The notes: generated by a model not told the origin, from the letters alone. Counted from the stretch's first letter, positions 17,452-34,191 are shown. The stretch is DNA of 64,000 nucleotides from Minisyncoccota bacterium (GCA_028713005.1 JAQTPC010000002.1:36643-100642), one strand, 5' to 3'. Numbers and translations: made by a program.

Positions 17452-17477
17452 TTTAATAGCTTAACTTTGAAATACTC

Positions 17478-18638
17478 ATGATCAAACTCGTCAAATCCAC
17501 TTTTTATAAAGAAAAAGAAACCAAGGAGTCTCTTGCGAAATTTATTCTTAATACAGAGATTATGAGTATGGGTGATGAGTGTAAAAAATTTGAGACAGCA
17601 TTTGCCAAAAAGCAAAAAAGAAAATATGCGCTACTCGTTTCAAGTGGTTCAATGGCAAACCAGGTGCTCATCCAGTCGGTGATGAATAGGGGTCTGCTCA
17701 AAAAGGGAGATAAGGTCGCTGTATCCGCCCTCACGTGGGCGACCAATATTATGCCACTACTCCAGCTTGGGCTTGAGCCGGTCATACTCGATGTTGATAT
17801 CGCTACATTTAACGTCTCATCAGTTGAGCTTGAAAAGCATATAAAAGGCATCAAGGCCTTTTTCATCACGAATGTGCTCGGCTTATGTGGCGATATGTCA
17901 GAGATAAAAAAAGTATGTGACAAACATAATGTGCTCTTGCTCGAAGATAACTGCGAATCGCTCGGCTCTGAAATTGACGGCAAGCTCCTCGGTAACTTTG
18001 GTCTTGCATCAACATTTTCATTTTTTGTCGGGCATCATCTCTCTACCATCGAAGGTGGCATGATATGTACTGACGATGACGATCTCTACAATATGCTTGT
18101 TATGGTGCGTGCGCATGGTTGGGATAGAAATCTCGCTCCTGAAACACAGCAAAAGCTCAGAAAAGAAGCGGGATGCGATGATTTTTATGCCAAGTATACG
18201 TTTTATGATCTTGCGTATAATGCTCGTCCAACAGAGATAACTGGTTTCCTTGGTAATTCTCAGCTCCCTTATCTTGATGAGATGATTACGAAGCGCGTTT
18301 CAAATTTTAAACGCTTTGCTGAAGCGGTGAATGCAAATGATGATTTTATGAAGATTGATCATGCCCATATCAATGCGGTTTCAAATATGGCTATGCCAAT
18401 CGTATGCAAGACGCCAGAAAAAGCCGAGATTTATAAAAAGAAATTTGCTGGTGCAGTCGAAATCAGGCCTGTCATTGCAGGTAATATGCTCAATCAGCCA
18501 TTTTACAAAAAATACGTACATAGCAGTGCTACATATCCGAACACTGACTTTGTACACCAAAATGGTTTTTATTTTGCCAACAATGCAGAATTAACAGAGG
18601 AAGAAGTCGACCTTATCGTAGCTTTATTGAATAAATAA
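17478..18638 (+). CDS. colD: DegT/DnrJ/EryC1 family PLP enzyme with His replacing the Schiff-base Lys. This is the signature of GDP-4-keto-6-deoxy-D-mannose 3-dehydratase (ColD).
   Basis: 'STFSFFVGHHLSTIEGGMICTDDDDLY' compared with my recollection of E. coli ColD 'FSFYYSHHIATMEGG'. The gene lies between gmd and an fcl-like gene. Confidence 0.65.
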   Translation: MIKLVKSTFYKEKETKESLAKFILNTEIMSMGDECKKFETAFAKKQKRKYALLVSSGSMANQVLIQSVMNRGLLKKGDKVAVSALTWATNIMPLLQLGLEPVILDVDIATFNVSSVELEKHIKGIKAFFITNVLGLCGDMSEIKKVCDKHNVLLLEDNCESLGSEIDGKLLGNFGLASTFSFFVGHHLSTIEGGMICTDDDDLYNMLVMVRAHGWDRNLAPETQQKLRKEAGCDDFYAKYTFYDLAYNARPTEITGFLGNSQLPYLDEMITKRVSNFKRFAEAVNANDDFMKIDHAHINAVSNMAMPIVCKTPEKAEIYKKKFAGAVEIRPVIAGNMLNQPFYKKYVHSSATYPNTDFVHQNGFYFANNAELTEEEVDLIVALLNK

Positions 18639-18639
18639 T

Positions 18640-19578
18640 ATGAAAAAAGATTCAAAAATATATGTGGCAGGTCATACAGGTTTGGTCGGTAGTGCCGTGG
18701 TGAGAAAGCTACAAGCTGAAGGCTATGCCAGTGTTGTTACACGTACACGTAAAGAGCTTGACCTCTTGGACACAAAAGCAGTTGATCATTTTTTTTCAAT
18801 AGAAAAACCTGAGTATGTCATCGATGCAGCTGCACGAGTCGGTGGCATCAAAGCAAACATGACGTTTCCTGCAGAGTTTCTCTATGAAAATCTTCAAATA
18901 CAGAACAATCTCATTTGGTCAGCACACAAACATGAGGCAAAAAAATTCTTATTCCTCGGTAGTTCATGCATATATCCTCGCAGTGCCCTACAACCGATGA
19001 AAGAAGAGTATTTTCTCGACGGCAAACTTGAACCTACAAATGAAGGATATGCTCTCGCAAAAATCTCAGGCATGAAGCTCTGTGAAAAGATCAATACAGA
19101 GTATAAAAAAGATTTTATCTCATGCATGCCGACTAACATCTACGGTCCTCATGATAATTTTAGCGAGGAGTCGTCACACGTCATCCCGGCACTTATCCAG
19201 CGTTTACATAAAGCAAAACTCGCAGGTGATGCTGAAGTAGTCATTTGGGGTAGTGGTATTAGTCGACGTGAATTTTTATACGTAGATGATTTGGCTGAGG
19301 CTATTGTATGGCTTATGGAGAACTATGATCAAAAAGAATTTTTGAACATAGGCACAGGCGAGGACGTATCTATCAAAGAATTGGCTACGCTCATAAAAGG
19401 GATTGTGGGCTATGAAGGTAAACTGGTATTCGATACGACTAAGCCGGATGGTATGCCCAAGAAACTTCTCGATGTTTCAAAGCTCACCGCTCTCGGTTGG
19501 CAGTCAAAGACAAAGCTTGAAAATGGGCTTAAGCAAAGCTACGCTTGGTTTTTGGAATACGGACAGAAACAAAAATAA
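18640..19578 (+). CDS. GDP-L-fucose synthase family epimerase/reductase (Fcl). In this context it is probably GDP-L-colitose synthase, ColC.
   Basis: 'IYVAGHTGLVGSAVVRKL' NAD(P)-binding N-terminus. 312 aa, consistent with an SDR-extended Fcl. Confidence 0.75.
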   Translation: MKKDSKIYVAGHTGLVGSAVVRKLQAEGYASVVTRTRKELDLLDTKAVDHFFSIEKPEYVIDAAARVGGIKANMTFPAEFLYENLQIQNNLIWSAHKHEAKKFLFLGSSCIYPRSALQPMKEEYFLDGKLEPTNEGYALAKISGMKLCEKINTEYKKDFISCMPTNIYGPHDNFSEESSHVIPALIQRLHKAKLAGDAEVVIWGSGISRREFLYVDDLAEAIVWLMENYDQKEFLNIGTGEDVSIKELATLIKGIVGYEGKLVFDTTKPDGMPKKLLDVSKLTALGWQSKTKLENGLKQSYAWFLEYGQKQK

Positions 19579-21405: not shown

Positions 21406-22102
21406 AGACCCAGCATTTTATAATAAAGAAAGCATGCAGTATTCTGCAAAGCGCTATCCAGCAGTAGCTACAAACTACGTTCAATTTTTCTTTAAGAGGA
21501 GACTCAGTTTGACTCTCTCACAAATGAGAGGATTATTTGGTGGGAGTAACAACCTCAGTCTCCTCGAGATCGGTTGTGCAGATGGTGTGGTGATGCGTGA
21601 TATACAGCAAAAATTACCCGCTGTATTTTCGAGTATGACTGGAATCGATACTGCCAAAGATATGATTGTTACCGCAGCTACATTAGACAGTACTCATAAG
21701 ATGAAATTTTATGTTCGTGGTGAAGAGCCAATTCAGACTTATGATGCAGTCGTTGAGGTTGGTGTAGTTAACTATGCTGATTTTGATACCGAGCTCGCAT
21801 ATGCCCGCGATCATCTCAAAGCAGGACAAGTATATATACTTTCTATAGCAGGGAAGGGTTCGCTCAATGCTCGTCTCGGTGACGGCGTCGGGTATAATAA
21901 TTTTTTATCTTACTCAGAATATCAAACTAAAATACGTGCATTATTTGATATTAAAAAAACGATTCCTGTCGGTCTGCGTATACCATTTATGTGGCGCGTA
22001 CCTTTTGTGGCACGTCTCATTCAACCAATCGCTGAAATTATGCTTTCTCGAATCGTGCCAAATCTCTTTCACGAAAAAATCTATATCTTGAGAAAACGTT
22101 AG
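21398..22102 (+). CDS. class I SAM-dependent methyltransferase (putative)
   Basis: 'LLEIGCADGVVMRDIQQKL' is motif I. The start was re-set to ATG 21398, which overlaps the upstream stop by 8 nt. Confidence 0.5.
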   Translation: MIKDPAFYNKESMQYSAKRYPAVATNYVQFFFKRRLSLTLSQMRGLFGGSNNLSLLEIGCADGVVMRDIQQKLPAVFSSMTGIDTAKDMIVTAATLDSTHKMKFYVRGEEPIQTYDAVVEVGVVNYADFDTELAYARDHLKAGQVYILSIAGKGSLNARLGDGVGYNNFLSYSEYQTKIRALFDIKKTIPVGLRIPFMWRVPFVARLIQPIAEIMLSRIVPNLFHEKIYILRKR

Positions 22103-23013
22103 AGTTGAATCCATGATTCAGGTATGAGGTCATGTGCAATGGTCTTTGGGTCACCGAAGCGCTGTTTCGGGGCTATGACGATCTTTTGAGGGTTGGTATT
22201 GAGCCATGCGCCCCACCAGCTATATGAGCTCTTTGCGATGATGTTATGTGTACAAGAGCTCATGATAATGAGCTCTTCATAGTCGGGGATATTATACTCA
22301 GATACATATACTGCATCAGGGCTAAAGTTCATATTATTTTTTACCCACTCTATCTCATCAGAAAATACAAAGACGCGGAGTGGGGCACCGTTTGTTTTTT
22401 CTTTTATATACTCAAGCGCTCCCGAATAATATTCACGCGTTAAATCACCGTGCTTTTTGAGTAAAGCAGGATCATTCACTTGATCGCCACGACGGATATG
22501 GATCGATACTGAAAGAGATGATTCAATCATTTTTTCAAGTTCAGCTCCTCTATCTGAGAGTGGTTTTTTGAGCTGAAAATCACTTTTGATTGTTGTTTCA
22601 AATTGTTTGAAATATTTTTCACTTTGCCATACGCCAGAAAGATAGCAATCATGATCAATCTGCATGACCTCAGGTATAAAGTCGAAGCCAGGCTCAAGGA
22701 TGATCTTTCTTTTTTGGAGTGGTTTGATCGATTCGATGAATCTAAATCCTTTGCGAATAATCTTTGAAAATACGTCCTGTTTTATAGGGTTTGGAATACC
22801 TGTTTTTATGAAGTTACTATCTGTAGCGATGAGCTGTTCGATATGTTGAATATTAAAATGGGGAAGTTTGAATGAACGATTAGGTTCGATGTTGAGGCCA
22901 TAAAAGTGCGTATCAAGCTTGAGTTCAGTATTGTGTGCAAGCGATAGCGCTCGCCCTAGAGCGTACTGAAAGAGTTGGTTGCCTATGCCTCCTGATATGC
23001 GAATAATAATCAT
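22099..23013 (-). CDS. GT11 family glycosyltransferase (alpha-1,2-fucosyltransferase family; candidate colitosyltransferase)
   Basis: 'MIIIRISGGIGNQLFQYALGRAL' matches GT11 motif I (GGLGNQMFQYA). The start was re-set to an internal Met, so the gene abuts the upstream stop. Confidence 0.65.
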   Translation of the reverse strand: MIIIRISGGIGNQLFQYALGRALSLAHNTELKLDTHFYGLNIEPNRSFKLPHFNIQHIEQLIATDSNFIKTGIPNPIKQDVFSKIIRKGFRFIESIKPLQKRKIILEPGFDFIPEVMQIDHDCYLSGVWQSEKYFKQFETTIKSDFQLKKPLSDRGAELEKMIESSLSVSIHIRRGDQVNDPALLKKHGDLTREYYSGALEYIKEKTNGAPLRVFVFSDEIEWVKNNMNFSPDAVYVSEYNIPDYEELIIMSSCTHNIIAKSSYSWWGAWLNTNPQKIVIAPKQRFGDPKTIAHDLIPESWIQL

Positions 23014-23014
23014 A

Positions 23015-24670
23015 TTAGTTGAAATATTTTTTGTATGCTTCTTTATTTTTGAGGATGAATAAAGGGAGGTCACTCTCATCTTTCCAGAAGGCGAATTTTC
23101 TTCCGACAAAATCTTTGTTGTCAGACATCATCTGTTCGATCTTTGATTTTATCTCTGTATTGTTAAATTCCTGGTGTCCATATGATTCAATCTTTTTTCT
23201 GATCTGATCCGCACCGCCCATGTTGGTGAAATGCCAACCGCCATTTTTAACATAGGTATATGAAGTCTTTTTCTCAGACCGGAGGTCGTTGAGGTAGCTA
23301 TCTTTTATAATCTTATATTTTGCAACAAGAGGGCCAATCCATGATTCGCTTGAACGATTGTTGAGATAGTACGCATACATATACTGCTTCAGGCGATATA
23401 TCCTATTTTGTGTATAGTCTACTTTAGCATCAGGATTCCATATCTCATCCACGTCAGAGACGTAGCAGATATCATCATCATTGAGACCTACGAGGGCTTT
23501 TTTAATTGATTCTTTTTGGTAGAGCTCTTTTGTCCAATCGACGCCATTTTCTCCGGTAACGCTGTGAGCAAAGACATCTTCAGTAATCTTTTTGTCTATT
23601 TCGTCAGTGTATTTTTTGGCATCAAATTTAGCTTTCAGTTCATCGGTCGTAGCTGCTGCATCCGCTACTACATAATGGATTATTTTATCTTTCCACTGAG
23701 CAAAGCGCTCTTTATTTTCCGCAAAGTATAATGGCTTTGGCATACCAGAAAATGTCTTTGGTGCTTCAACGATAACAAAATAATCGACATGTGGATCGAG
23801 TATATTCAAACGGATCTCAAGTAGATCAAGCTCATTAAAAAATGTGAATATGTCGTAGACTTTGATCTTTTCTCTATAGGCGCTACTTGTTTTGTTGGGC
23901 GCAAGTTGATTTTTGATCGACGAAAGCTCTCGCTTAAGGAATCTCTTTATACCACGCGACTCATAGCGCAGTTTCCCGTGTACCTTGTTTGAATATTTTT
24001 TTATTGAAGTTATTTTTTTCTCTGCTGATTGTATGATTCCCGCGAGGCCTTGTTTTTTAGCATGAAATCCAAAGGGGCGAGGATATGAATCGTCACATAC
24101 TTTTTCTCTACTAAATATTGAAGCGACCGATACAGGTGCGAACTTAACCCCGTTTTCTTCAAGTACTTTTCGATAATAGACACAGAGATTTCCGTCCTCA
24201 TTAAAATAACCCGTACCGTTGTCAGTGAAAGGTAGATTGAGTTTTGCTGGCACCTCAAGGAGTTTTTTGCTTCTGAGTGAGAATCCTCCATTACCAACGC
24301 GAACATTAACACCTTCTTTGGTGAAATGAAGATTTTTTGGCCACGGTGCGCCAATATAGTCATAGCTGAGAAATTCATCTCGCCATTCTTTTGGTCGGAT
24401 CACGTAACCATCGTATTGGACGACCAGAGCAAAATCTGTGTGTATGTAATCCTTGAGCTTATACAGCATGAAATCGCTATAACCCTTATAATCGAGCTTT
24501 TCGATTGTTATGACCTTGATACCTTCTTTCTCCAAAGATATCTTTTCGTGTGTCAGTAACAATGCCTCACTAAAACGTATTCCTACCATGCTCTTTTTGA
24601 GTGCAGTGATAGTCTCAGGTATTCGTATGCTTGATACAGCAACGAGTGTTACATGTGGCAGGTCTTTCAT
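23015..24670 (-). CDS. two-domain glycosyltransferase-like protein. The N-terminal domain is unknown (possibly DUF5672-like). The C-terminal domain is GT17-like.
   Basis: 'YDIFTFFNELDLLEIRLNILDPHVDYFVIVEAPKTFSGMPKPLYF' resembles the Glyco_transf_17 core as I recall it (FNxELDLLExRL...VDxFVIVES..TF.G.pKP). Confidence 0.45.
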   Translation of the reverse strand: MKDLPHVTLVAVSSIRIPETITALKKSMVGIRFSEALLLTHEKISLEKEGIKVITIEKLDYKGYSDFMLYKLKDYIHTDFALVVQYDGYVIRPKEWRDEFLSYDYIGAPWPKNLHFTKEGVNVRVGNGGFSLRSKKLLEVPAKLNLPFTDNGTGYFNEDGNLCVYYRKVLEENGVKFAPVSVASIFSREKVCDDSYPRPFGFHAKKQGLAGIIQSAEKKITSIKKYSNKVHGKLRYESRGIKRFLKRELSSIKNQLAPNKTSSAYREKIKVYDIFTFFNELDLLEIRLNILDPHVDYFVIVEAPKTFSGMPKPLYFAENKERFAQWKDKIIHYVVADAAATTDELKAKFDAKKYTDEIDKKITEDVFAHSVTGENGVDWTKELYQKESIKKALVGLNDDDICYVSDVDEIWNPDAKVDYTQNRIYRLKQYMYAYYLNNRSSESWIGPLVAKYKIIKDSYLNDLRSEKKTSYTYVKNGGWHFTNMGGADQIRKKIESYGHQEFNNTEIKSKIEQMMSDNKDFVGRKFAFWKDESDLPLFILKNKEAYKKYFN

Positions 24671-24674
24671 ATGA

Positions 24675-25703
24675 TTACTGTAGCATATCGCCGTTCATGA
24701 GCTTTCTCAAGCGTATGTAACTTCGTCTGAGGAACATCTTTTTTATATCGATCACTGCCCTAAATGTGGATGATTCTTTTCTTAATGTGTGAAAGATACG
24801 CACATTTTCTCTTATCTTATTTTTTAAAGAGGGTTGATAGGTTGTAGTACCCGAATATATGTTGGTATGTGAGGATGTGTAGGTTTTTAATTCCTTCTGA
24901 CATTCATCATAGGTTTGCAATGCACCAGTGCGGTCTTGATACATCCAGCCTGTGGTGAGGCTATACCCGGGACACCAAAATCCATCTGATATATTGTGAC
25001 GTGCCCAGTATTTTGGTGCGATGCAGTATTTGAGATTTTGGGAAAGCCAGGCAGGGAACCAGGCAAAGCTCGAGTTAGAGAGTATGAGGTAGTGAGCATT
25101 TTTTATCACCGCATAATCTTTACCGATGTTAAAGTGATGTATTTCGAGGTCAGGAAAGAATGTTTTTGCAGTAGCCGGGTCTTCGGTGATGACGATAAAT
25201 CTGAACCTTGGATGTATCTTTTTCATATGATCCATCGCATGTCTCCAGTAGCTCGGTGGGAGCAAAAGCTCTTTTTCGCTGACATAGCCGCTTCCTCGAA
25301 AATTGACGATGCATATGTCGTCGCTGGCAAAATCCTTAAAATCGGCCTCAGGTTTGACTGCGAGCCATTCGCGTATCTCATCTTTTCTATGAGCGATATA
25401 TCGTTCATCCTGCATGATGCCATCTATTTTTGTATCGTCGGCGACATTCATCAGACCCTCATCATAAATACGTATATCTGCGCCGTTCAGTGGATGTAAA
25501 AGTTCTTTTTCCTGGTAATGAAATGTGGGGTTTTTGAGTACAGTTTTGCCAAGGTCAAGATTCAAAAAATCAGCACCTTTGAATACTTCAGGTGATTGTA
25601 TGCCAAAATCATAACCTTTATCTTTGGCAATACTTCGAGTGACTACATAGCACCAGAGTTGGTTGCCGAGTCCTTGTCCTTTGTAAAATTGCGTCGTTAT
25701 CAT
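24675..25703 (-). CDS. GT11-like glycosyltransferase (second fucosyl/colitosyl-transferase family member)
   Basis: N-terminal 'FYKGQGLGNQLWCYVV' resembles GT11 motif I. Confidence 0.4.
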   Translation of the reverse strand: MITTQFYKGQGLGNQLWCYVVTRSIAKDKGYDFGIQSPEVFKGADFLNLDLGKTVLKNPTFHYQEKELLHPLNGADIRIYDEGLMNVADDTKIDGIMQDERYIAHRKDEIREWLAVKPEADFKDFASDDICIVNFRGSGYVSEKELLLPPSYWRHAMDHMKKIHPRFRFIVITEDPATAKTFFPDLEIHHFNIGKDYAVIKNAHYLILSNSSFAWFPAWLSQNLKYCIAPKYWARHNISDGFWCPGYSLTTGWMYQDRTGALQTYDECQKELKTYTSSHTNIYSGTTTYQPSLKNKIRENVRIFHTLRKESSTFRAVIDIKKMFLRRSYIRLRKLMNGDMLQ

Positions 25704-25707: not shown

Positions 25708-27183
25708 TTACTTAATTTTTCGGAGTATCACGCATTCATCACGGAGTTCTTGCTTGAAATGGTATTTTTCTATTGCACTATAAAATGCGGCGCTCGAGCC
25801 GGGTTTCATCCGGTCATGAAGTTCGATAATGAGTATGTTGACCTTGCTCAACCATGAGTCACAATTTCCCGAAAAGAGTTCTTTTTCAGCACCTTCTATA
25901 TCTAGTTTTAAAATATCGATCTCAGCATATCCTGACATCTTGAGCACATCATCAATAGTGATTGCTTCAACGACATTGTCACCACCAGATTGTGCTTCTG
26001 TAGTAGTGAATGCCCATTCGCCTAGACCACTATCATTAACGGCTAACTTAGTTGTTTTATTCCATAAACCTTTTTTAAGAGGATGAATGAGAGGATATCG
26101 AGATACATTTTTCTGTAATGTACGGAAGTTTGTATTTTCTGGTTCAATGGCAAATATTTTTGCGGTAGGAAACTGCTTTGCAAAAAAGACAGATGTGTAG
26201 CCAACATTAGCGCCACCATCGATGATGAACTTTGGTTGTATAGTGCCATAATCTATGCCGTATTGTTTTTCGATGAAAACCTGCCTGATAACCGCTGCGT
26301 CAGAAGTATTGAAACGTACGATAAGTGGGAAGAAAGTAATACGATACTTAATCGTTGTTAAGATGTGCAGAGTAGTCTTTTTTGTCGCTAGATACCATGA
26401 GCGCATGCCTGAATTTGTGTTTCGTTTGATGAATTCTTTTATTTGTCTCTTGTACCTTTTAAGCTTGTAAGTAATGAGTTTCTGCCAAAAACCAGATATA
26501 TTGTATTTCTTAAGTATATAGCGGTATTCATTCTCTCGTATTTTCTCTTTGCTTGAATTGCCCATCTGGTTTCCATGGACACGGATGACGACGTTTACAT
26601 CATTTAATATCTTGGGTGCACCATAGCGTTCGTAGTATCTCTTATAAAAATCGAGATCCTGCCACCATATGAGATTAGTATCAAATAAAACAGGGTTATC
26701 ATTTCGTAGTGTCGCTACCGAAGGTGCACTGATAGTGTTTTTGAAGAGTATTTTCTCATCATTATATGTAGGAAAGAAAGGACGATAAAATGTCTCTCCA
26801 TCCTTAGATGAAATACTTGCAGTAAGGAGCCAACGGTCTTTTTCAAGATCAAAGTTCTGTGCGATTTCTTCAAGTGCTTTTGGATGATAGAGAAAATCAT
26901 CGAGGAAAAGTATCTTAATCAATTTTCCTGTAGCGTGCTTGATGGCATTATTATTGTTATCGGACGGCGTTGCCTCTGGCTTTTCTCTGAAATAATGGAT
27001 ATCGAGACTGTTACTGTATTCTTTGCATACTTTGTCTATCTCATCGTTTTTTGATTGGTCAGATATGACTACGTCAAAATCAGTGAATGTTTGCAATATA
27101 AGCTTGTCAAAACTGAATCGCAAAAAATCTGCACCTTTACCACCCATTTCATATGTAGATATACAGATGCTGATTAGTTTCAT
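25708..27183 (-). CDS. bifunctional GT2 glycosyltransferase / FkbM-family methyltransferase
   Basis: N-terminal 'ISICISTYEMG...DFDVVISDQS' is GT2-like. C-terminal 'IDGGANVGYTSVFFAKQFPTAKIFAIEPENTNF' is the FkbM methyltransferase signature. Confidence 0.6.
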   Translation of the reverse strand: MKLISICISTYEMGGKGADFLRFSFDKLILQTFTDFDVVISDQSKNDEIDKVCKEYSNSLDIHYFREKPEATPSDNNNNAIKHATGKLIKILFLDDFLYHPKALEEIAQNFDLEKDRWLLTASISSKDGETFYRPFFPTYNDEKILFKNTISAPSVATLRNDNPVLFDTNLIWWQDLDFYKRYYERYGAPKILNDVNVVIRVHGNQMGNSSKEKIRENEYRYILKKYNISGFWQKLITYKLKRYKRQIKEFIKRNTNSGMRSWYLATKKTTLHILTTIKYRITFFPLIVRFNTSDAAVIRQVFIEKQYGIDYGTIQPKFIIDGGANVGYTSVFFAKQFPTAKIFAIEPENTNFRTLQKNVSRYPLIHPLKKGLWNKTTKLAVNDSGLGEWAFTTTEAQSGGDNVVEAITIDDVLKMSGYAEIDILKLDIEGAEKELFSGNCDSWLSKVNILIIELHDRMKPGSSAAFYSAIEKYHFKQELRDECVILRKIK

Positions 27184-27189
27184 GATGTT

Positions 27190-27975
27190 CTATTTTGCCT
27201 TGGAACCACCAGTCTTTTGCTTTGCCCACGTAAGTTCAGAAACACGCTTCCACATAAATCGAACCTTGCGGCGTGTTCTGTCGAGGAGACGTGGCATATC
27301 AACTACATATGTAGAACCTTCGATTTTTGCAGGGTATTTTTTTATAAATACAATGCTGCGGTATAGGTGCATAAATTGGATAGCATCTTCCCACCATGAA
27401 AGCACGGTTTTATTGTTGAGGTGATAAGCGTCAGTTGCATCGAGCGCATGATTTCCGGTGCCCGATTTGCCAGATGAATTAACATAATCAACCAACTCCT
27501 TGATCTTATCGATGAATACAGGTTCGCCCGCGCCATGTGTCTTTCCCCAGTAACACATATGGAGATCTTCGACGACATAGATGCCATCGGGTTTCAGGAG
27601 AGGAAAGAGGCAATCAAAACTTGCTTTCATATCAGGATTTCGGTGACTACCGTCGTCGATGATGATATCGAATGGGCCATGCTTTTTGTTGATCATGGCG
27701 AGAAATGCAGGATCGCTTTGGTCACCTTTTTCAGTATATATCCTCTCTTGTTCAAGCTCTTTGCAATCTTCTATATCTGCACCAACTAGTTTTGCTTTAA
27801 TGAAGTATTCTTTCCAGGTGAGGAGTGAGTGTCCATTGGCGATGCCTATCTCAAGAATTGTTATAGGCTTATCGCGAAGTGCTTCAAAATAGGCAGCATA
27901 CAGCTTTGTATAGTTGTGTTTTCTGCTTGATTTGTCTGTACCGTATTTCAGTGCGATCTCATCGAGTGTCTTCAT
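27190..27975 (-). CDS. SAM-dependent methyltransferase (TylF/MycF-like sugar O-methyltransferase family, putative)
   Basis: 'KYGTDKSSRKHNYTKLYAAYF...ILEIGIANGHSL' is the Methyltransf_24-like pattern. Confidence 0.5.
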   Translation of the reverse strand: MKTLDEIALKYGTDKSSRKHNYTKLYAAYFEALRDKPITILEIGIANGHSLLTWKEYFIKAKLVGADIEDCKELEQERIYTEKGDQSDPAFLAMINKKHGPFDIIIDDGSHRNPDMKASFDCLFPLLKPDGIYVVEDLHMCYWGKTHGAGEPVFIDKIKELVDYVNSSGKSGTGNHALDATDAYHLNNKTVLSWWEDAIQFMHLYRSIVFIKKYPAKIEGSTYVVDMPRLLDRTRRKVRFMWKRVSELTWAKQKTGGSKAK

Positions 27976-29588
27976 AGAAGTGAATTGATTAGTGTTTGTA
28001 TTTTCGCATTGCGCTCTTCACGATTGCGGAGCGTTTTCCAGCCTGAGGAGCCAAATAAATGCATCCAATCACCGAGGTATTCTATCATATCTACTGAAGG
28101 ATCCATGACCTTGGTTTTCGGGGTACCCGCGTCAGTAATTGCTACATATGATGAGACAGGAAATTCGATTTTTGTCTTATCGAGCTTTGAATACAAATGC
28201 TTCCAGTTCATGCCTCCTGTATCCACACCGACCCCACCAATTTTTCCGTTCATAAAGTTTGGCTGTACTACGGCGTTACTTTTAAAGAAACAAAATCCAG
28301 CCCACAAGTACCATAGATTATTTTTTCTGATCTGTAGATGCCCAAATATTGATTGTGCATCAAGTATAGATATGACACCTGTTTTTTTGATAGGGAAGAT
28401 ATCGTGATCAAGAAAGCCAAAATAGTGAGCGTTTCTCTTATTAAAATAATTTTTATATATCCAGTTGAGCGACGAGCCGTGCGATGCTGATCGAGTGAGA
28501 TAGTTTTTTGGAAGTTTTACATAGGCTATTTTTTCTGCCGCGCATAGTCTTTTTATCTCCTCAGCTTTGTCTGTATCAGTTGAATTGTCGAATACGGTAT
28601 AAAAATAGGGATCAGTGATATTTTTTCGTATGAGCTTTATTTGCCAAGCGATTACTTCAGGTTTATTGAAGGCGACTGTAGCAAGATCGAGAATATTTTT
28701 ATCCTTTAACTGACTATTGGTACAGTTGATATGTTCACAGACGTCAAAGCTAACTTTATAAAATTCATACTCTTTCTTTCTTAAATATATTTTTTTGTAT
28801 AAGTAGGAAACGGTGTTAGTGATTCTTTTTACTACATATGTGCATAGTGGCAATACATAGAGTGGATGCAAAAATGCAAGTTTCTTGATAAGAAAATGAA
28901 AGTACATTTTCTGTATTTGCGCGAGTTCTATGGCATGCACTCTACCTTCATAATAGGTACTTAGTTGGTTGGCATGAATTCTTTTTTGGGTAAGCACCTG
29001 TGGAATGTTAGCGATGTGTAGTCCACTCATGATTGCTCGTACGTAAAAATCATATTCATTTTCATAGCGATATGTATCTGCATACGTCACATTCTTTTCT
29101 TTAATATCCTGTGCACGGATGATTGCAGTTGTAGATTCAATCTGGTTACCCAAAAGCATGGCAGCCATCGTAGTATCAGATACAGGATCACATACGTCTT
29201 TATTTTTTGATCCAAATAACGAGACCAATGTTCCTGAAATGGAAACCTTTGGATTGGTATCCATAAACGCTACTTGGGTTTTGATTCGCTCCGACAGACT
29301 GATATCATCAGCATCCATCCTGGCAATATATTTTCCTTTAGACACATTCAGCCCTTTATTTAATGAAGTGACAATGCCGCGATTCACCTCGTTTTCAAGG
29401 TAGTGAATACGGTAGTCTGTGTAGGACTTTATGATTTCTTTTGTTCGATCAGTTGAACCGTCATTTATAATGATAAGTTCAAAATTTGAAAAAGTTTGAG
29501 AGAGAATACTATCGACCGCCTCTTTTATGTATGTTTCGCCGTTGTAAACGGGGAGAATGATCGATACGGCTGGTTGTATGTGTGCCAT
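27972..29588 (-). CDS. glycosyltransferase family 2 with an extra C-terminal domain
   Basis: 'VSIILPVYNGETYIKEAVDSILSQTFSNFELIIINDGSTD' is the canonical GT2 N-terminus. 538 aa. Confidence 0.75.
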   Translation of the reverse strand: MAHIQPAVSIILPVYNGETYIKEAVDSILSQTFSNFELIIINDGSTDRTKEIIKSYTDYRIHYLENEVNRGIVTSLNKGLNVSKGKYIARMDADDISLSERIKTQVAFMDTNPKVSISGTLVSLFGSKNKDVCDPVSDTTMAAMLLGNQIESTTAIIRAQDIKEKNVTYADTYRYENEYDFYVRAIMSGLHIANIPQVLTQKRIHANQLSTYYEGRVHAIELAQIQKMYFHFLIKKLAFLHPLYVLPLCTYVVKRITNTVSYLYKKIYLRKKEYEFYKVSFDVCEHINCTNSQLKDKNILDLATVAFNKPEVIAWQIKLIRKNITDPYFYTVFDNSTDTDKAEEIKRLCAAEKIAYVKLPKNYLTRSASHGSSLNWIYKNYFNKRNAHYFGFLDHDIFPIKKTGVISILDAQSIFGHLQIRKNNLWYLWAGFCFFKSNAVVQPNFMNGKIGGVGVDTGGMNWKHLYSKLDKTKIEFPVSSYVAITDAGTPKTKVMDPSVDMIEYLGDWMHLFGSSGWKTLRNREERNAKIQTLINSLL

Positions 29589-29609
29589 ATATGTATAGGG
29601 TAACTAAGT

Positions 29610-30884
29610 CTACTTATTTTTGAATGTGTAGGAGATGATGTTGCTTGGAAAATCTTTGCCCGGTTGAAGGCGGAAGTTGAACTTCTCAATATCAGTTGTA
29701 GTAACTTCGAACTGTACGATATTTTCGAGCACGTCGCGGTTTGATCCTGCGGCAATGAGCCATACCGTGATCGAGTATCTGCCTGCCTTGAGATTGATGG
29801 GCGCTGTCTCGCAGATGATAGTTCCATGAGAGGGGATATGCTCACCGAGTGTTTCGGCTGAGATGGCACTGTCTATAAAGAGTACTCTTTTTTGAGTCAA
29901 TTCATCGGTCACGATGATGTTGATCTGAGGATCGATGATGTCACCTTTGGTATCATTTGCATACTCAAGTTTGAAATGGAGACGGCTGTCACTTTTGACT
30001 GGACCACCACCAATAGCGGAAACATCGATACCTTTGAAATGAGGGCCTTTTTTATCTGCACGGTTAGCGAGTTTTTCTGTTGCCTCCTTGCCACCAATGA
30101 TCGGTTGTCCGTTGAGATATGCATCGATGATCTCCTTTGTCTCGCCGATCTGCTTGATTGTGCCACCTTCAAGCCAAATAGTTTTTTTACAGAGTCGTTC
30201 AACTGCTGCCATATTATGACTGACGAAGAGGATGGTACGTCCTTCTTTTTGTGTCACTTCCTGCATCTTACCAAGACATTTTTTCTGGAATTCTGCATCG
30301 CCGACAGCGAGTACTTCATCGACGATGAGGATATCTGGTTCCATATGTGCAGCAACAGAGAAGGCGAGACGGACATACATGCCACTCGAATAGCGCTTTA
30401 CCGGTGTATCGAGGAATCTGTCGACGCCGGCGAACTCAACTATCCGATCGAACTTTTTTGCAATTTCTGTGCGTTTCATGCCGAGGATAGCGCCATTCAA
30501 AAATATATTTTCACGACCAGTGAGCTCAGGGTGGAAGCCAGTACCAACTTCAAGGAGGGAGCCAACACGTCCGCGGAGGATGATCTCGCCCTCGGTTGGA
30601 GGAGTGATCTGGGAGAGTATCTTGAGGAGAGTTGATTTTCCTGCACCATTGCGTCCGATGATGCCGATGACTTCACCTTTTTGTACGTCAAAACTGACAT
30701 TGCGTAATGCCCAGAAATCTTCACGACTCTCCATGCCAGTAACTTGGCGAGCTTTTTTTGCAAGAAATGCAAATGGCTTTTTTATGATGCCTGCAAGTAC
30801 ATCACGGAGTGCTACGTAGCGGCCACGCTCATGGTTGATGAGATATTTTTTGCCGACGCCTTTGACTTCGATGATAGGATTCAT
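29610..30884 (-). CDS. wzt: polysaccharide ABC exporter ATP-binding protein Wzt/TagH-type with a C-terminal carbohydrate-binding domain
   Basis: Walker A 'GIIGRNGAGKSTLLKIL', signature 'YSSGMYVRLAFS' and a roughly 170-aa C-terminal extension. Confidence 0.85.
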   Translation of the reverse strand: MNPIIEVKGVGKKYLINHERGRYVALRDVLAGIIKKPFAFLAKKARQVTGMESREDFWALRNVSFDVQKGEVIGIIGRNGAGKSTLLKILSQITPPTEGEIILRGRVGSLLEVGTGFHPELTGRENIFLNGAILGMKRTEIAKKFDRIVEFAGVDRFLDTPVKRYSSGMYVRLAFSVAAHMEPDILIVDEVLAVGDAEFQKKCLGKMQEVTQKEGRTILFVSHNMAAVERLCKKTIWLEGGTIKQIGETKEIIDAYLNGQPIIGGKEATEKLANRADKKGPHFKGIDVSAIGGGPVKSDSRLHFKLEYANDTKGDIIDPQINIIVTDELTQKRVLFIDSAISAETLGEHIPSHGTIICETAPINLKAGRYSITVWLIAAGSNRDVLENIVQFEVTTTDIEKFNFRLQPGKDFPSNIISYTFKNK

Positions 30885-30901: not shown

Positions 30902-31789
30902 TTATACGACGTCAGCAAAGTAGCGTTCGACTTTCTTGAACATATAAACTCCAATGAAGAGTAACACTGCACAACCGACGACAGAAATGCCGATCTGAAG
31001 CCAGTTGACTTGAGCGGTGCCCAAGAGGACGGCACGAGCATTGTTGACGACGCCGGTCATCGGGTTGAGAGCGAGGAATTTTGAGTAGTGGCCAGCGATA
31101 GAACCAGGATAAATAACAGGGGTGATGAATATAAGGAGCTGGATGAAGTATGGCAGAATATAGCGAACATCACGATACTTTACGTTGATTGCTGCAAGAA
31201 ATAGTCCAAGGCCTTCAGCGCACATAGCGGTGATAATGAGGAGAATAGGAATCACTATGATAGCTTGCCAGCTTGGGGTGATGTGGTAATAAAACATCAT
31301 GCCTGCGAGGATAATAGAGGCAATAGAAAAATCGACAAATTTGGTGATGACAGTTGTGATTGGGATGATAAGGCGAGGGAAGTAGACTTTGGTGATGATG
31401 GCTTGATTGGCTATGAGGGCACCACTGACTTCGCTCAAAGAATCAGAGAAAAGTTGCCAGAAAAGAAGTCCGGTGTAAACAAAGATCGGATACGGAACAT
31501 TGTCAGAAGGGATCTTTGCGAGGCCGCCAAAGAAAACTGAAAAGATGACCATAGCTACAAATGGTTGGATGATAGCCCAGAGAGCGCCGATCATCGTCTG
31601 TTTGTAGCGCACTTTAAGATCGCGCCAGCTAAAGAAGTAGAGAAGCTCGCGATATACCCATATTTCTTTGAGATCTTTGAGGTGGAATAGCTTCTTTGGG
31701 CGTATGACCGTAATAGCAGTTGGTTGGGGGCTAGACATGAAGTCCATACTAGCATAAAGAAATATTCTTGTTGAGTATTTACCTGACAT
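30902..31789 (-). CDS. wzm: ABC-2 type polysaccharide exporter permease Wzm
   Basis: Six predicted TM helices. 'WRDLKVRYKQTMIGALWAIIQP' is the typical ABC-2 permease start. It lies immediately upstream of wzt. Confidence 0.8.
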   Translation of the reverse strand: MSGKYSTRIFLYASMDFMSSPQPTAITVIRPKKLFHLKDLKEIWVYRELLYFFSWRDLKVRYKQTMIGALWAIIQPFVAMVIFSVFFGGLAKIPSDNVPYPIFVYTGLLFWQLFSDSLSEVSGALIANQAIITKVYFPRLIIPITTVITKFVDFSIASIILAGMMFYYHITPSWQAIIVIPILLIITAMCAEGLGLFLAAINVKYRDVRYILPYFIQLLIFITPVIYPGSIAGHYSKFLALNPMTGVVNNARAVLLGTAQVNWLQIGISVVGCAVLLFIGVYMFKKVERYFADVV

Positions 31790-31801: not shown

Positions 31802-34075
31802 ATGGATTATAGATATATTAATCAGTTTTTAATTCAGCACTTACCTATGTCTCTCAAATCCATTACACGGTTTTTCATGCTTGCGCCAGTCTTCCTGATT
31901 CCTCTGTTTGTTCTTTTTCCAACACCACATACACCGTTTGAGATATCAAATTTCTTTTTCTTTCCTTTTATCACGGGCAAAGCGTTCTATTTCCGCATTC
32001 TCGTCGAGATAGCATTTGCAGGTTGGGTCATCCTTGCATGTCTTGATGCAAAGTATCGTCCAAAGATAAATGCGCTCACGCTCGGTGTCACTGCATTTGC
32101 CCTCATCACCCTCGTAGCCGATCTCCTTGGCGTGAATCCACTCCGTAGTCTCTGGTCAAACTTTGAGCGTATGGAAGGTTGGATAGTCATCGCTCATCTC
32201 TGGATGTTCTTTATTGTCATGGCACATGCATTTGGATTGCCGGAAACCGGCAAGAAGCTCTGGCGCAACTGGATGAATGTTTCTCTTGTGACTGCGCTTA
32301 TCGTGGCATGTTATGGTTTTGCTCAGCTATTCGGCTGGACAGATATCCACCAAGGATCAGTTCGTATAGATGCTTCGCTCGGTAATGCAGCGTATATGGC
32401 TATCTATATGTTGATCAGTACTGGTTTTGCTGTGTATCTTTTCTTGGAATCAAAAGTTCGCCGTGCTACCACAAATATCTTTGATCTCACTGTTCTCGAA
32501 TGGCTCTATGCGATAGCGGCAATCGTTTTCTCTTTCCTCCTCTTTGAAACAGCTACTCGTGGTACTGCATTTGGTTTGATTGGAGGCGTAATGCTTGCCC
32601 TCTTTTTGTATGCGATCTTCGCTGGATCAGCAAAGAAAACATCACGCATTGTCGCTGGCAGTATTATCGTTGGTATCATCATTCTTGGTGGTATCATCTG
32701 GCTCGCACGTGATTCTCATTTTGTTCAAAATAACGCAGCTCTCAACCGTCTAACCTCTATCACACTCACTGAGATACAGACGCAAGGTCGTGCCTACATC
32801 TGGCCAATGGCAGTGAAGGGTTCTCTTGAACGTCCAGTCCTCGGTTGGGGTCAAGAAAATTTCAACTATATCTTTAACGCCAACTATAACCCTGCCATGT
32901 ACAACCAAGAGCAGTGGTTCGATCGTGCTCACAGCGTGTATCTCGATTGGCTTGTTGCTTCAGGATTTGTTGGTTTGTTAGCGTATCTCGCTCTCTATGT
33001 ATTTTTCTTGATGGCAGTGTGGAAGTCTACGCTTACAGTCGCAGAAAAAAGTGCACTCACTGGTCTCCTTGTCGGTTACGCTATTCACAATATCTTTGTA
33101 TTCGATAACCTTGCGAGCTATGTCTCATTCTTTGCTCTTCTCGGTCTTGGCGCTTCGCTTACTCCTGCAAAAGTTGAAGGTGTACCAAAGCCACCAAAAG
33201 AGATCGGTCCGGATATGATCGAATACGTTATAGCGCCAGTCGTTATCATCATTTTGCTCGGTGGACTCTATATGTTCAATATACGTCCAATCCAAGAGAA
33301 CACCCGTCTCATTACTGCGCTTCGGGCATGTGGTGGTGCTTCACTTCCTGATGTGACGTTATTCCAGCGTGCACTTGATAGTGGTTCATATGTTGGAAAA
33401 CAAGAGATCCGTGAACAGATATTCTCATGCGCAGCAAATGTTATCAGTGCACAGCAACTCCCAAATACAACGAAGCAAGCATTCTTTGACCTCGCAACTA
33501 CTGCTATCACTGATCAAATCGCCACTAGTCCGCTCGACGCACGTGTTTACACGCTCGGCGGATCATTCCTTGAACAGGTTGGTGCATATAGTCAGGCAGT
33601 TCCATTCTTGGAAAAGGCTCATGATCTGTCACCAGCAAAACAAACTATCGCATTTGCTCTTGCAACCGCATATATCAATATCAATCAATATGATAAGGCA
33701 CTTGCTCTACTCAAACAGGCGTATGAATCAGCAACTGAAAATGCTGATGCACAGTCAGGTTATCTCACTGCTCTCATCATCGCCGGCAAAGAAACTGATG
33801 CAAAGAAAATTTTTGCTGATCAGCCGGGATTATTCAACACTGAACGTGTTGCCCAGGCGTACGCTCTTGCAAAGCAGTATGACAAGTCTATTGCCGCGTA
33901 TAAGTCACTCATTGGAACAAGTACTGATCAAGTAAATATGCAGTTTAGAATGGCTCAAGTTCAGTACAGTGCCGGTAGAATATATGATGCAGTAGCTACG
34001 CTTCAAGCTATCGAAAAGGCTCATCCTGAATACAAGACTCAGATTGACCAGGCAATCAAGCAGGTTCAAAAATAG
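31802..34075 (+). CDS. Wzy_C (O-antigen ligase/polymerase-like) polytopic membrane protein with a C-terminal TPR-repeat domain
   Basis: About 12 TM helices. 'RAHSVYLDWLVASGFVGLLAYL' is the Wzy_C core. The C-terminal 250 aa are Ala-rich, TPR-like repeats. Confidence 0.7.
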   Translation: MDYRYINQFLIQHLPMSLKSITRFFMLAPVFLIPLFVLFPTPHTPFEISNFFFFPFITGKAFYFRILVEIAFAGWVILACLDAKYRPKINALTLGVTAFALITLVADLLGVNPLRSLWSNFERMEGWIVIAHLWMFFIVMAHAFGLPETGKKLWRNWMNVSLVTALIVACYGFAQLFGWTDIHQGSVRIDASLGNAAYMAIYMLISTGFAVYLFLESKVRRATTNIFDLTVLEWLYAIAAIVFSFLLFETATRGTAFGLIGGVMLALFLYAIFAGSAKKTSRIVAGSIIVGIIILGGIIWLARDSHFVQNNAALNRLTSITLTEIQTQGRAYIWPMAVKGSLERPVLGWGQENFNYIFNANYNPAMYNQEQWFDRAHSVYLDWLVASGFVGLLAYLALYVFFLMAVWKSTLTVAEKSALTGLLVGYAIHNIFVFDNLASYVSFFALLGLGASLTPAKVEGVPKPPKEIGPDMIEYVIAPVVIIILLGGLYMFNIRPIQENTRLITALRACGGASLPDVTLFQRALDSGSYVGKQEIREQIFSCAANVISAQQLPNTTKQAFFDLATTAITDQIATSPLDARVYTLGGSFLEQVGAYSQAVPFLEKAHDLSPAKQTIAFALATAYININQYDKALALLKQAYESATENADAQSGYLTALIIAGKETDAKKIFADQPGLFNTERVAQAYALAKQYDKSIAAYKSLIGTSTDQVNMQFRMAQVQYSAGRIYDAVATLQAIEKAHPEYKTQIDQAIKQVQK

Positions 34076-34154
34076 TTTGCACGTTATCCTCGCTGTAGTA
34101 TAATTGCATCGTGAGTACCCTAGGTGGGCACTCTCCAATAAATGTCTCGCAAAG

Positions 34155-34178
34155 TGCTGCCCTCGGCAGCCTTTTGCG
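34155..34178 (+). terminator. Rho-independent terminator after the Wzy_C-TPR gene
   Basis: GCTGCC-CTC-GGCAGC followed by CTTTTGCGTT. Confidence 0.45.
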
Positions 34179-34191
34179 TTGTTGGGGTGTA

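Follow-up and report, generated by a model that had tools for sequence, protein, structure and literature searches.

The genes between positions 25,708 and 30,884 of the window (the whole 64,000-nucleotide stretch of DNA that was analysed) probably form the export and late-assembly part of a surface-glycan pathway that depends on a Wzm/Wzt ABC transporter, in a Paceibacteria (CPR) bacterium; this judgement, somewhat better than even, covers the best explanation as a whole. The system is of a known kind, with an export operon that is ordinary-looking for ABC-transporter glycans and a cap-reading Wzt domain that is genuine. Under the mechanism we propose, the glycan would grow in the cytoplasm, attached to a polyprenol carrier, as the cluster's glycosyltransferases add GDP-derived sugars of the 6-deoxy or 3,6-dideoxy hexose class (fucose and/or colitose) together with others. 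Methyltransferases genetically paired with single glycosyltransferases would O-methylate it at several positions, and the jelly-roll carbohydrate-binding domain (CBD) of Wzt would most likely bind a structure at the non-reducing end, such that only finished chains are exported. The last step would be the glycan's transfer by a Wzy_C-TPR enzyme onto an acceptor at the surface of the CPR cell; judging from lineage only, this cell presumably has a single membrane, and the acceptor is most likely a pilus or S-layer protein.

The export operon and its surroundings

From wzm to the last GT11 gene, the cluster is one tight operon, all on the minus strand, and its domain calls in profile searches lie far beyond chance. 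It opens with wzm (30902..31789, minus strand), encoding an ABC-2 permease of 295 aa (PF01061 ABC2_membrane, E 2e-14), whose identity is 99% in the related loci L002-L004 and 61-81% across the scored loci of related Patescibacteria. Next in transcription order is wzt (29610-30884, minus strand), whose product of 424 aa has an ABC_tran domain of the Wzt/TagH type with a C-terminal extension and is encoded beside the ABC-2 permease. There follow GT2X (27972..29588, minus strand), a dual glycosyltransferase of 538 aa; a MycE/TylE-like sugar O-methyltransferase of 261 aa (27190..27975, minus strand); GT2::FkbM (25708..27183, minus strand), a glycosyltransferase-methyltransferase fusion of 491 aa; and three more glycosyltransferases. 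Since all of these genes lie on the minus strand in this order, two genes separate wzt from the fusion, which lies third downstream and not, as the preliminary description had it, directly upstream of the exporter; the components listed there are real, but the gene order was wrong, as was the TylF label given to the methyltransferase. GT2X was missing from that account of the cluster.

The three final genes encode GT11w (24675..25703, minus strand; 342 aa), with a weak, sub-threshold GT11-like match (PF01531, 22.2 bits); a DUF5672 + GT17-like protein of 551 aa (23015..24670, minus strand; PF18922, E 2.5e-21; PF04724, E 5.8e-26); and a GT11-family transferase of the fucosyl/colitosyl type (22099..23109, minus strand; PF01531, E 1.2e-27), whose real start probably lies near 23013 because homologues align from query residue 33. 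GT11w is a conserved clade-core gene, with orthologues 53-91% identical in L002, L086, L088, L089, L090 and L005; its fusion partner is FkbM in L090 and GT17 in L005. The DUF5672 + GT17-like protein is also clade-core, and is kept in L002, L086, L088 and L089.

Divergent from the operon is the gene for a Wzy_C membrane protein with C-terminal TPR repeats (31802..34075, plus strand; PF04932, E 6.8e-19; TPR_19, E 4.6e-16), which is syntenic with wzm-wzt in related loci. The protein is of the O-antigen-ligase/O-oligosaccharyltransferase type, with an architecture described for WsfB and PglL (PMC2943079), and is the probable enzyme for moving the exported glycan onto its acceptor. Genes for a Gmd, a ColD-like dehydratase and an Fcl/ColC-like synthase (16390..19578, plus strand; GDP_Man_Dehyd, E 1e-150) would together supply GDP-6-deoxyhexose and probably GDP-colitose; ColD (2gms, E 1.4e-64) is the closest match to the DegT protein, which has His-His at the catalytic position, and the GDP-L-fucose synthase profile gives 466 bits, short of its cutoff of 500. 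Pfam further identifies a class-I methyltransferase, MT23 (19403-20284, plus strand), a GT4 (20233-21405, plus strand) and a second class-I methyltransferase, MT12 (21329-22102, plus strand); the last two are separate here and form a fused GT4::MT12 of 621-642 aa in L005 and L086.

Synteny of SecA, MurB, Wzy_C-TPR, wzm and wzt extends to named Paceibacterota/Parcubacteria MAGs, whose SecA is 60-68% identical. The host is a tiny-genome Paceibacteria/CPR bacterium. No initiating phosphoglycosyl transferase (Bac_transf or WecA-type) is found among the window ORFs scanned; Bac_transf adjoins the locus in the related L090 and L091. The arrangement had been called notable in such a lineage, but CBD-type Wzt proteins are common in Patescibacteria/CPR assemblies; the literature searched contains no discussion of them in Patescibacteria.

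The carbohydrate-binding domain of Wzt

The ATPase domain of Wzt (residues 1-257; 30114..30884, minus strand; ABC_tran, E 6.9e-24) has readable Walker A (GRNGAGKST), signature (YSSGM) and Walker B (ILIVDE) motifs, and a variable linker (residues 258-285) joins it to the CBD (residues 286-424; 29613..30029, minus strand). The Pfam Wzt_C family (PF14524) matches the C-terminus weakly, at 27.2 bits where the gathering score is 30.4, and the assignment therefore rests on the structure model and on alignment to PDB entries; a precomputed Wzt_C match is present in many close Wzt homologues. In the AlphaFold monomer model (pLDDT 91.1) the extension has a beta-sandwich (jelly-roll) fold, and its best 17 Foldseek matches in the PDB are all solved Wzt CBDs (8dky, 6o14, 8dku, 7k2t, 5hno, 5hnp and 2r5o; E 1.5e-8 to 8e-6, TM 0.57-0.76), from Aquifex, Raoultella terrigena and E. 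coli O9a. The last of these, which the preliminary description had proposed for comparison, is represented by 2r5o at a TM of about 0.63. Residues 54-396 also align end to end with full-length Aquifex Wzt (PDB 8dku/7k2t; E 2e-66 for 8dku), and every related Wzt examined has a C-terminal extension. On these grounds of fold, alignment and retention in homologues, the suggested C-terminal binding domain is real. A further mark of the family, apart from the binding of a non-reducing-end cap, is dimerisation through exchanged C-terminal strands.

The CBD diverges much faster than the ATPase domain. It is 90% identical between the window and L002-L004, and in one relative, on the contig with P0124 and P0069, it has been swapped: the ATPase domains are 83% identical there, the CBDs only 14%. 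Of the Aquifex methyl-pocket residues L300, T346, A348 and W362, sequence alignment indicates that only T346 is kept (T373 here); W362 is replaced by V385 and A348 by W375, a Trp specific to this subgroup. As this pocket is not kept, the CBD is uninformative on the chemistry of the cap.

CBDs of this type bind terminal caps and are needed for the export of capped chains (PMC9445017), and every studied CBD-type Wzt provides a basis, by analogy, for gating at a non-reducing-end cap (PMC9445017). Since the C-terminal region of Wzt is neither disordered nor absent in homologues, and the FkbM domain does not lack SAM-binding residues, cap-gated export is a sound inference and a reasonable prediction here. 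It is also the part that stands of the earlier proposal, in which a methyl cap both stops growth and licenses export; the cap may or may not be a methyl group, and its assignment to GT2::FkbM is not a sound inference.

Candidate enzymes for the cap

GT2::FkbM is the fusion it was said to be, with significant matches to both domains: Glycos_transf_2 (PF00535) at residues 5-135 (E 4.6e-13) and FkbM at residues 322-459 (PF05050, E 2.7e-16), the latter above cutoff for both PF05050 (60.6 bits; 22.7) and TIGR01444 (86 bits; 37.7). Its model (pLDDT 92.9) contains a GT-A domain (residues ~1-210) that resembles K4CP, WrtF and SpsA, a basic linker of three helices (213-283) and an FkbM Rossmann methyltransferase (~290-491), in which the four SAM motifs DGGANVGY, AIEPE, LKLDIEGAE and IIELHDR are intact when aligned with the family consensus. 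Only four full-length clusters in the protein collection have this architecture, which is best read as a module in which a sugar is added and then methylated. Fusions of glycosyltransferases to methyltransferases recur in more than one form (GT2::FkbM, GT11w::FkbM, GT2::DUF5672::FkbM, GT2::class-I MT and GT4::MT12), and we count this in favour of a functional coupling of the two activities.

It is possible, though we regard it as doubtful, that this module is the chain terminator, adding and methylating the last sugar to give a methyl cap that stops polymerisation, is read by the CBD and defines chain length. The fusion is intact, at 61-90% identity, in all five related loci with this operon type, yet one of its occurrences (61% identical) is on the P0124/P0069 contig, beside the unrelated, swapped CBD. 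Of its two halves, GT2 belongs to the clade core and lacks an FkbM partner in L089 and L090. FkbM is joined in L090 to another glycosyltransferase, GT11w; it stands alone in L005 and is missing from L089, where Wzt has a CBD all the same. Such a role has a precedent in WsaE, a glycosyltransferase-methyltransferase fusion that ends a chain (PMC2943079), and methyl caps are read by the CBD of Aquifex; furthermore, L002-L004 have the fusion and the 90%-identical CBD, and lack the other candidate methyltransferase. The predicted defined length, however, fits poorly with a linker of only about 70 residues and with a model in which a long coiled-coil ruler is not seen.

Methylation would also be a poor unique signal unless its position were distinctive, which counts against it as the mark of a cap: five or more methyltransferase genes or domains are present in the cluster, most of them paired with a glycosyltransferase, so that methylation is probably spread along the glycan and widespread at internal positions. 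Among these is the 261-aa methyltransferase, which is translationally coupled to GT2X, with a 4-nt overlap between its start and the GT2X stop. A TylF-like identity is rejected for this protein, which has no TylF (PF05711) match in Pfam at E <= 0.01 and only sub-threshold matches to Methyltransf_24/23/31; its relatives by phmmer are TylE (8ia9, E 1.2e-31) and MycE (3ssm, E 7.6e-31), both sugar 2'-O-methyltransferases. It consists of the catalytic domain only, with aligned DDGSH (D107-D108-G-S-H111) and VEDL (E136-D137) motifs; the DDGSH and EDL motifs of MycE are its metal ligands and catalytic base. The gene is found in L086 and L088 (73-75% identical) and is absent from L002, L003 and L004.

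GT2X begins with a GT2 domain (residues ~1-230), matched by PF00535 over residues 9-126 (E 2.7e-36); a helix, hydrophobic or basic, separates it from a divergent GT-A-like C-domain (286-538), which has no Pfam match even at E <= 1. This C-domain has 183 relatives at E <= 0.001, and those listed are mostly standalone hypothetical proteins of ~240-300 aa; D49-x-S51 and D109-H110-D111 are invariant in the family, 16 of whose 59 members weakly match PF00535. It is a member of an uncharacterised family that seems to resemble the GT-A fold. Among the loci compared, GT2X is present only in the window, L002-L004, L086 and L088, and these loci have a CBD with W375 that is at least 46% identical to that of the window. 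The CBD subtype tracks GT2X, not GT2::FkbM, although this covariation is carried by the one discordant contig (P0124/P0069), where a 300-aa gene with no Pfam match could be a relative of the GT2X C-domain.

This distribution, together with a position directly after wzt like that of wsaE and a C-domain from an uncharacterised, apparently GT-A-like family, tentatively suggests that GT2X makes the cap, or the cap-bearing polymer, with optional modification by the MycE-like methyltransferase, in a split equivalent of the trifunctional WsaE. Some known terminators add a unique sugar, as WbbB and GT137 do with their Kdo caps, but a pair of glycosyltransferase modules is just as typical of polymerases, and the MycE-like gene is dispensable in L002-L004. 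If GT2X has this role, GT2::FkbM and the three glycosyltransferases after it would assemble a core or adaptor that is conserved and methylated internally. For the making of the cap, then, we give GT2::FkbM a minority share of the probability and most of the remainder to GT2X, with or without the MycE-like methyltransferase. It is very improbable that the CBD instead binds internal repeats, tethers the polymer or only modulates the ATPase, with chain length uncontrolled or set by enzyme stoichiometry: the unconserved pocket residues of characterised CBDs and the lack of a ruler in GT2::FkbM would be consistent with this, but all three structurally solved CBD types come from terminal-cap systems, and the fast divergence and swapping of the CBD, compared with the ATPase domain, are characteristic of a ligand site that determines specificity.

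Comparison with known systems

The 261-aa methyltransferase shares a homologous catalytic domain, with DDGSH and EDL motifs, with MycE and TylE (3ssm, 8ia9), and a 6-deoxyhexose hydroxyl is the likely common class of substrate; it lacks their N-terminal auxiliary domain of ~155 residues, and belongs to a polysaccharide cluster where theirs is a macrolide pathway.

For cap-gated export, the models are the proposed Geobacillus S-layer system, E. coli O8/O9a, R. terrigena/K. pneumoniae O12 and Aquifex. E. coli O8/O9a and K. pneumoniae O3/O5 (WbdD + Wzt-CBD) have ABC-transporter-dependent export and a C-terminal jelly-roll CBD on Wzt, as here, and methylation is among the known terminating modifications. 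In cap-dependent pathways of the O9a type, chains are ended by a dedicated enzyme that carries a coiled-coil molecular ruler (PMC11231755), and CBD specificity co-varies with the terminator. No equivalent is seen here of WbdD, in which a long coiled-coil ruler accompanies a kinase and a class-I methyltransferase, and which has no glycosyltransferase domain; the O8/O9a-type product is attached to lipid A-core in a diderm. The CBD fold also matches that of R. terrigena/K. pneumoniae O12 (5hno), where the terminator WbbB, like GT137 of K. pneumoniae O4, is a glycosyltransferase module in a multi-module protein and a model for GT2X as cap maker (PMC11231755). These terminators add beta-Kdo and have coiled-coil rulers, whereas no coiled coil is seen in the modelled fusion here and no Kdo-pathway family was found among the proteins scanned. 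The best match to Wzt in sequence and structure, over both domains, is Aquifex aeolicus WzmWzt (7k2t, 8dku, 8dky), where the ligand of the CBD is the 3-O-methyl sugar that caps a deoxyhexose polymer (PMC9445017); apart from T346/T373 its methyl pocket differs, with W375 here in place of A348.

The closest analogue is the Geobacillus S-layer glycan (slg) cluster. The locus here is of a CPR lineage, which slg is not, and is known from its genes alone; the slg sugars derive from dTDP-rhamnose and those here would derive from GDP-mannose (gmd, colD, fcl/colC); and where slg has one trifunctional WsaE, FkbM-type and MycE-type methyltransferases are here spread over several glycosyltransferase-methyltransferase pairs. 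The slg-type gene set of Wzy_C + TPR, wzm-wzt, multi-domain glycosyltransferase/methyltransferase genes and nucleotide-sugar genes is present here in one locus. Clusters of this type in monoderm bacteria also have an S-layer or other protein as the glycosylated acceptor and an initiating phosphoglycosyl transferase, the second of which is not found among the window ORFs scanned. In Geobacillus stearothermophilus NRS 2004/3a and Paenibacillus alvei (wsaA/wsaB, wzm, wzt, wsaE), as here, a Wzy_C oligosaccharyltransferase with a TPR element adjoins wzm-wzt (PMC2943079) and multi-domain glycosyltransferase/methyltransferase genes lie directly after wzt (PMC2943079); a monoderm context and a deoxyhexose-rich polymer would be further common features. 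In slg, the multi-domain enzyme makes a 2-O-methyl cap (PMC2943079), which is proposed to end growth and to be read by Wzt (PMC2943079).

A Wzm/Wzt export operon and the carbohydrate-binding domain of Wzt

The genes between positions 25708 and 30884 fall within a compact eight-gene operon; all eight genes lie on the minus strand and are separated by only 4-21 nt or overlap slightly. The exporter is transcribed first, as wzm (30902-31789; 295 aa, ABC2_membrane) and then wzt (29610-30884; 424 aa, ABC_tran with a weak Wzt_C match). These are followed by GT2X (27972-29588; 538 aa), a dual glycosyltransferase in which the GT2 match covers residues 9-126 only; a MycE-like methyltransferase (27190-27975; 261 aa), a MycE/TylE homologue with sub-threshold class-I methyltransferase matches; GT2::FkbM (25708-27183; 491 aa), a glycosyltransferase-methyltransferase fusion with GT2 at residues 5-135 and FkbM at 322-459 (TIGR01444, 86 bits); GT11w (24675-25703; 342 aa), named for its weak GT11 match; a DUF5672/GT17 protein (23015-24670; 551 aa, PF18922 and PF04724); and GT11 (22099-23109; 336 aa, PF01531, E 1.2e-27). 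The three components singled out in the preliminary description, namely GT2::FkbM, a methyltransferase and a Wzt with an additional C-terminal domain, are all present, and the locus is a real, well-preserved Wzm/Wzt operon for glycan export in a Paceibacteria genome, complete with the C-terminal carbohydrate-binding domain (CBD) of Wzt. The gene order differs from that account: wzt is followed immediately by GT2X, which had been missed, and the fusion comes third after wzt in the direction of transcription, not just upstream of the exporter as had been stated.

The CBD (residues 286-424; 29613-30029 (-)) is well supported. In a phmmer search the full-length Wzt of Aquifex aeolicus (8dku/7k2t) aligns with residues 54-396, continuing through the CBD, at E about 2e-66, and the structure predicted for residues 255-424 from 72 homologues is a beta-sandwich with a mean pLDDT of 91.1. 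When this model was searched with Foldseek, the best 17 PDB matches were exclusively solved Wzt CBDs; the Aquifex structures 8dky and 6o14 gave TM 0.74-0.76 on target length, the Raoultella terrigena O12 structures 5hno and 5hnp were also matched, and E. coli O9a 2r5o, the comparison originally proposed, gave a TM of about 0.63. The C-terminal region is thus neither disordered nor lost among relatives, as the domain was found in all close Wzt homologues. By analogy, it can be soundly inferred that export would be gated by a cap. In the Aquifex CBD, a pocket of L300, T346, A348 and W362 accommodates the methyl group of the cap (PMC9445017). When the two Wzt sequences are aligned, W362 is replaced by V385 and A348 by W375, and because the pocket is unlike that of Aquifex, the CBD gives no indication of its ligand or of the cap chemistry.

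Wzt proteins of this type are routine in these genomes, since most of the best 120 relatives, inspected from eight thousand candidates at E <= 1e-20, are about 405-435 aa long and carry Wzt_C; every one of those 120 that has a lineage name belongs to the Patescibacteria. Our literature search found nothing naming Patescibacteria together with Wzt, and the matches listed in a broader search concern solely Gram-negative O antigens and capsules. An association between FkbM and CBD-type Wzt was sought over 85 Wzt loci (80 from a genome scan), nearly all of which encode a Wzt of at least 380 aa, leaving no control group that lacks a CBD. The FkbM HMM used was contaminated by misaligned DUF5672 sequences, so that it matched DUF5672/GT17 genes and missed a known fusion (in locus L090); as a rough figure, an FkbM-like gene lies within 10 kb in about a quarter of the loci (likewise 21/85 by tblastn).

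Genes that may track the carbohydrate-binding domain

In the model put forward in the preliminary description, GT2::FkbM caps the chain with a methyl group, which ends polymerization, licenses export via the CBD and gives the glycan a defined length. The fusion itself appears intact. Its FkbM motifs DGGANVGY, AIEPE, LKLDIEGAE and IIELHDR are all kept and match the consensus of about 30 aligned relatives, so the SAM-binding residues expected of the family are in place. In the model of the whole protein (pLDDT 92.9), a linker of three helices (residues 213-283) connects a GT-A domain to a Rossmann domain; a Foldseek search with this whole model was dominated by GT-A structures and was uninformative about the FkbM half. 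Proteins of exactly this architecture are rare (four clusters in the protein collection), although fusions of glycosyltransferases to FkbM generally recur. The GT2 half also has relatives that are joined to a class-I methyltransferase or to DUF5672, in the latter case either with FkbM or without it.

To identify which gene accompanies which CBD, eight related loci were scored against the window proteins, with GT2 here denoting an orthologue of the GT2 half of the fusion. In the window and in L002-L004, L086 and L088, wzt is followed by GT2X, GT2::FkbM and the core genes, and the CBDs are 46-91% identical to that of the window; the window, L086 and L088 additionally have the MycE-like gene after GT2X. 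L089 has GT2 without FkbM and then the core genes (CBD 41%), and L090 has GT2 without FkbM, a GT11w::FkbM fusion with a distant FkbM, GT17 and GT11 (CBD 39-41%). L005 encodes a GT11w::GT17 fusion, with FkbM free-standing elsewhere in the locus (CBD about 32%). The ERZ1426829 contig (P0124/P0069) has a standalone FkbM, a 300-aa gene, GT2::FkbM and the core, without GT2X, and its CBD is only 14-21% identical. The post-wzt core common to the clade is GT2, GT11w, DUF5672/GT17 and GT11, and, judged from these gene contents, FkbM is a module that moves with respect to this core.

Across these relatives identity is 75-84% in the ATPase domain (residues 1-257) but anywhere between 14% and 91% in the CBD, and by this measure, as in the comparison with P0069, P0003 and P0001, the CBD diverges much more rapidly. 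In P0069, the Wzt of the ERZ1426829 contig, the ATPase domain is 83% identical and the CBD 14%, a sign of domain replacement; the GT2::FkbM of this contig is 61% identical. GT2X is confined to loci with W375 and a CBD identity of 46% or more (the window, L002-L004, L086 and L088), and this tryptophan is conserved only in the subgroup nearest the window (the window and P0001-P0004), which includes all GT2X-containing loci. Because the ERZ1426829 contig keeps the fusion, lacks GT2X and has so divergent a CBD, the CBD subtype would appear to follow GT2X and not the fusion, a lead that comes from this single discordant contig. Given the mobility of FkbM and this lead, the assignment of GT2::FkbM as the terminator does not stand as it was worded.

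The C-terminal domain of GT2X (27972-28733 (-)) comprises about 250 residues. It matched no Pfam family even at E <= 1, and a profile of its family found no relative in the PDB. A total of 183 relatives were found at E <= 0.001. Standalone hypothetical proteins predominate among those listed, and the small number that carry a name are from Bacteroidia, Sumerlaeia, Methanomassiliicoccales and Neisseriaceae. Weak matches to PF00535 in 16 of 59 family members point to a GT-A fold, and the invariance of DxS and DHD motifs across the family alignment suggests that the domain probably represents a divergent, uncatalogued GT-A glycosyltransferase family. GT2X is thus probably a two-module enzyme. Two-module glycosyltransferases can act as polymerases or as terminators (PMC11231755).

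Methylation and chain length

The 261-aa methyltransferase had been described as TylF-like, but it has no match to PF05711 (TylF) at E <= 0.01; its homologues are TylE (8ia9) and MycE (3ssm; E about 1e-31 for both), and it retains the DDGSH and EDL motifs. MycE and TylE act in macrolide pathways, where they methylate the 2'-OH of a 6-deoxyhexose, and by homology the protein is a sugar O-methyltransferase of a family other than TylF. The gene is cleanly present or absent: L002-L004, which represent the closest relative in three independent assemblies, lack it, and there the gap between GT2X and GT2::FkbM is 15 nt by ORF call (L002) or 52 nt by gene calls (L002 and L003). As the CBD in these assemblies is nevertheless 90% identical to that of the window, the MycE-like gene is unlikely to set what the CBD reads.

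There are five methyltransferase genes or domains in the window and up to about seven in relatives, most of them paired with a glycosyltransferase. GT2::FkbM is one such pair in fused form, GT2X and the MycE-like gene overlap by 4 nt, and a GT4 gene (11863) overlaps the class-I methyltransferase gene MT11 (12930). A further GT4 gene and MT12 (Methyltransf_12), at 20233-22102 (+) with starts at 20233 and 21329, are adjacent and overlapping in the window and form a single fused protein of 621-642 aa in L005 (15218-17146) and L086 (15040-16905), one of several such pairings that recur in these loci. This pairing fits a glycan that is methylated at many residues. Methylation is then unlikely to be a unique cap signal, and the role of the cap may fall to one particular methyl group among them or to a distinct sugar. 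The proposal of a methyl cap cannot be kept in its original form, given five mostly glycosyltransferase-paired methyltransferases and a CBD pocket that differs from the methyl pocket of Aquifex.

Characterized terminators usually contain a long coiled-coil ruler (PMC11231755). The linker of GT2::FkbM is, by sequence and model, only about 70 residues of three very basic helices, and looks more like a membrane-association element. Nothing that we observed therefore predicts a defined chain length, and this part of the original model does not stand as it was worded.

Genomic setting and comparison with S-layer glycan clusters

The best Wzt relatives in species-representative genomes come from Parcubacteria/Paceibacterota, Saccharibacteria, Falkowbacteria and Azambacteria MAGs. 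The block of SecA, MurB, Wzy_C-TPR, wzm and wzt is syntenic with named Paceibacterota MAGs (SecA is 60-68% identical), on which basis a diderm LPS O-antigen locus was rejected, and the block from SecA to wzt is also syntenic with an 876-kb relative contig. Comparison of 31802-41449 (+) with L005, L006, L008, L009, L013 and L014 shows a conserved Paceibacteria position for the glycan locus, with Obg, SecA and MurB followed by Wzy_C-TPR divergent from wzm-wzt. Downstream of wzt, the glycosyltransferase and methyltransferase content differs among relatives, like an O-antigen serotype island. In L005, on the 876-kb contig, SecA appears split into several short ORFs (1520-4192), which could reflect frameshifts, assembly errors or a pseudogene in this long-read assembly. 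The translation initiation factor IF-2 (52999-54555 (-)), with its GTP_EFTU and IF-2 domains, has only 518 aa, fewer than is usual in bacteria.

Upstream, the plus strand encodes GT4 glycosyltransferases, three class-I methyltransferases and gmd-DegT-fcl (16390-19578). For the DegT protein the nearest match is ColD (PDB 2gms, E 1.4e-64), and a His-His pair takes the place of the catalytic lysine of aminotransferases, which suggests that the trio probably makes GDP-colitose (3,6-dideoxy-L-galactose), possibly with GDP-fucose alongside. Perosamine was rejected, as the enzyme is ColD-like and not Per-like. The window ORFs that were scanned yielded no initiating phosphoglycosyl transferase (Bac_transf or WecA/MraY type); in L090 and L091 a Bac_transf gene adjoins the locus. 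A 708-aa TrwB_AAD_bind/TraG-D_C/DUF87 protein (5426-7552 (+)), which in sequence resembles a type IV secretion coupling protein or a HerA ATPase, is encoded immediately before the cluster's first GT4 gene.

The CPR, or Patescibacteria, are tiny and mostly uncultured, and life in attachment to host cells is presumed for many of them, so that their surface chemistry likely matters for attachment; to our knowledge almost nothing is known of it. We consider improbable, though worth stating, a fuller reading in which these loci would be fixed-position, serotype-like hypervariable glycan islands of Paceibacteria (CPR) next to SecA-MurB, where the CBD is exchanged along with whichever gene immediately follows wzt (GT2X in this lineage), the Pfam-less, GT-A-like C-terminal domain of GT2X is a new class of chain-terminating (cap-adding) glycosyltransferase, and the many glycosyltransferase-methyltransferase pairs give the episymbiont a coat of deoxyhexose glycan with heavy O-methylation. 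The CBD could serve as a probe of the native glycan, and GT2::FkbM and GT2X are candidate capping enzymes for experimental work. The mechanism is already known; the value of these results lies in its extension to a CPR lineage and in the correction of the likely terminator gene.

These genomes use the standard Wzm/Wzt pathway with a CBD predicted to read a cap, in a layout like that of Gram-positive S-layer glycan clusters. The divergent 757-aa Wzy_C-TPR protein shares the architecture of the S-layer O-oligosaccharyltransferase WsfB and of PglL (PMC2943079). In the slg clusters wzt is followed by wsaE, which encodes a methyltransferase and two glycosyltransferase domains and makes a 2-O-methyl cap (PMC2943079), and the overall layout found here mirrors that of the slg clusters of Geobacillus and Paenibacillus.
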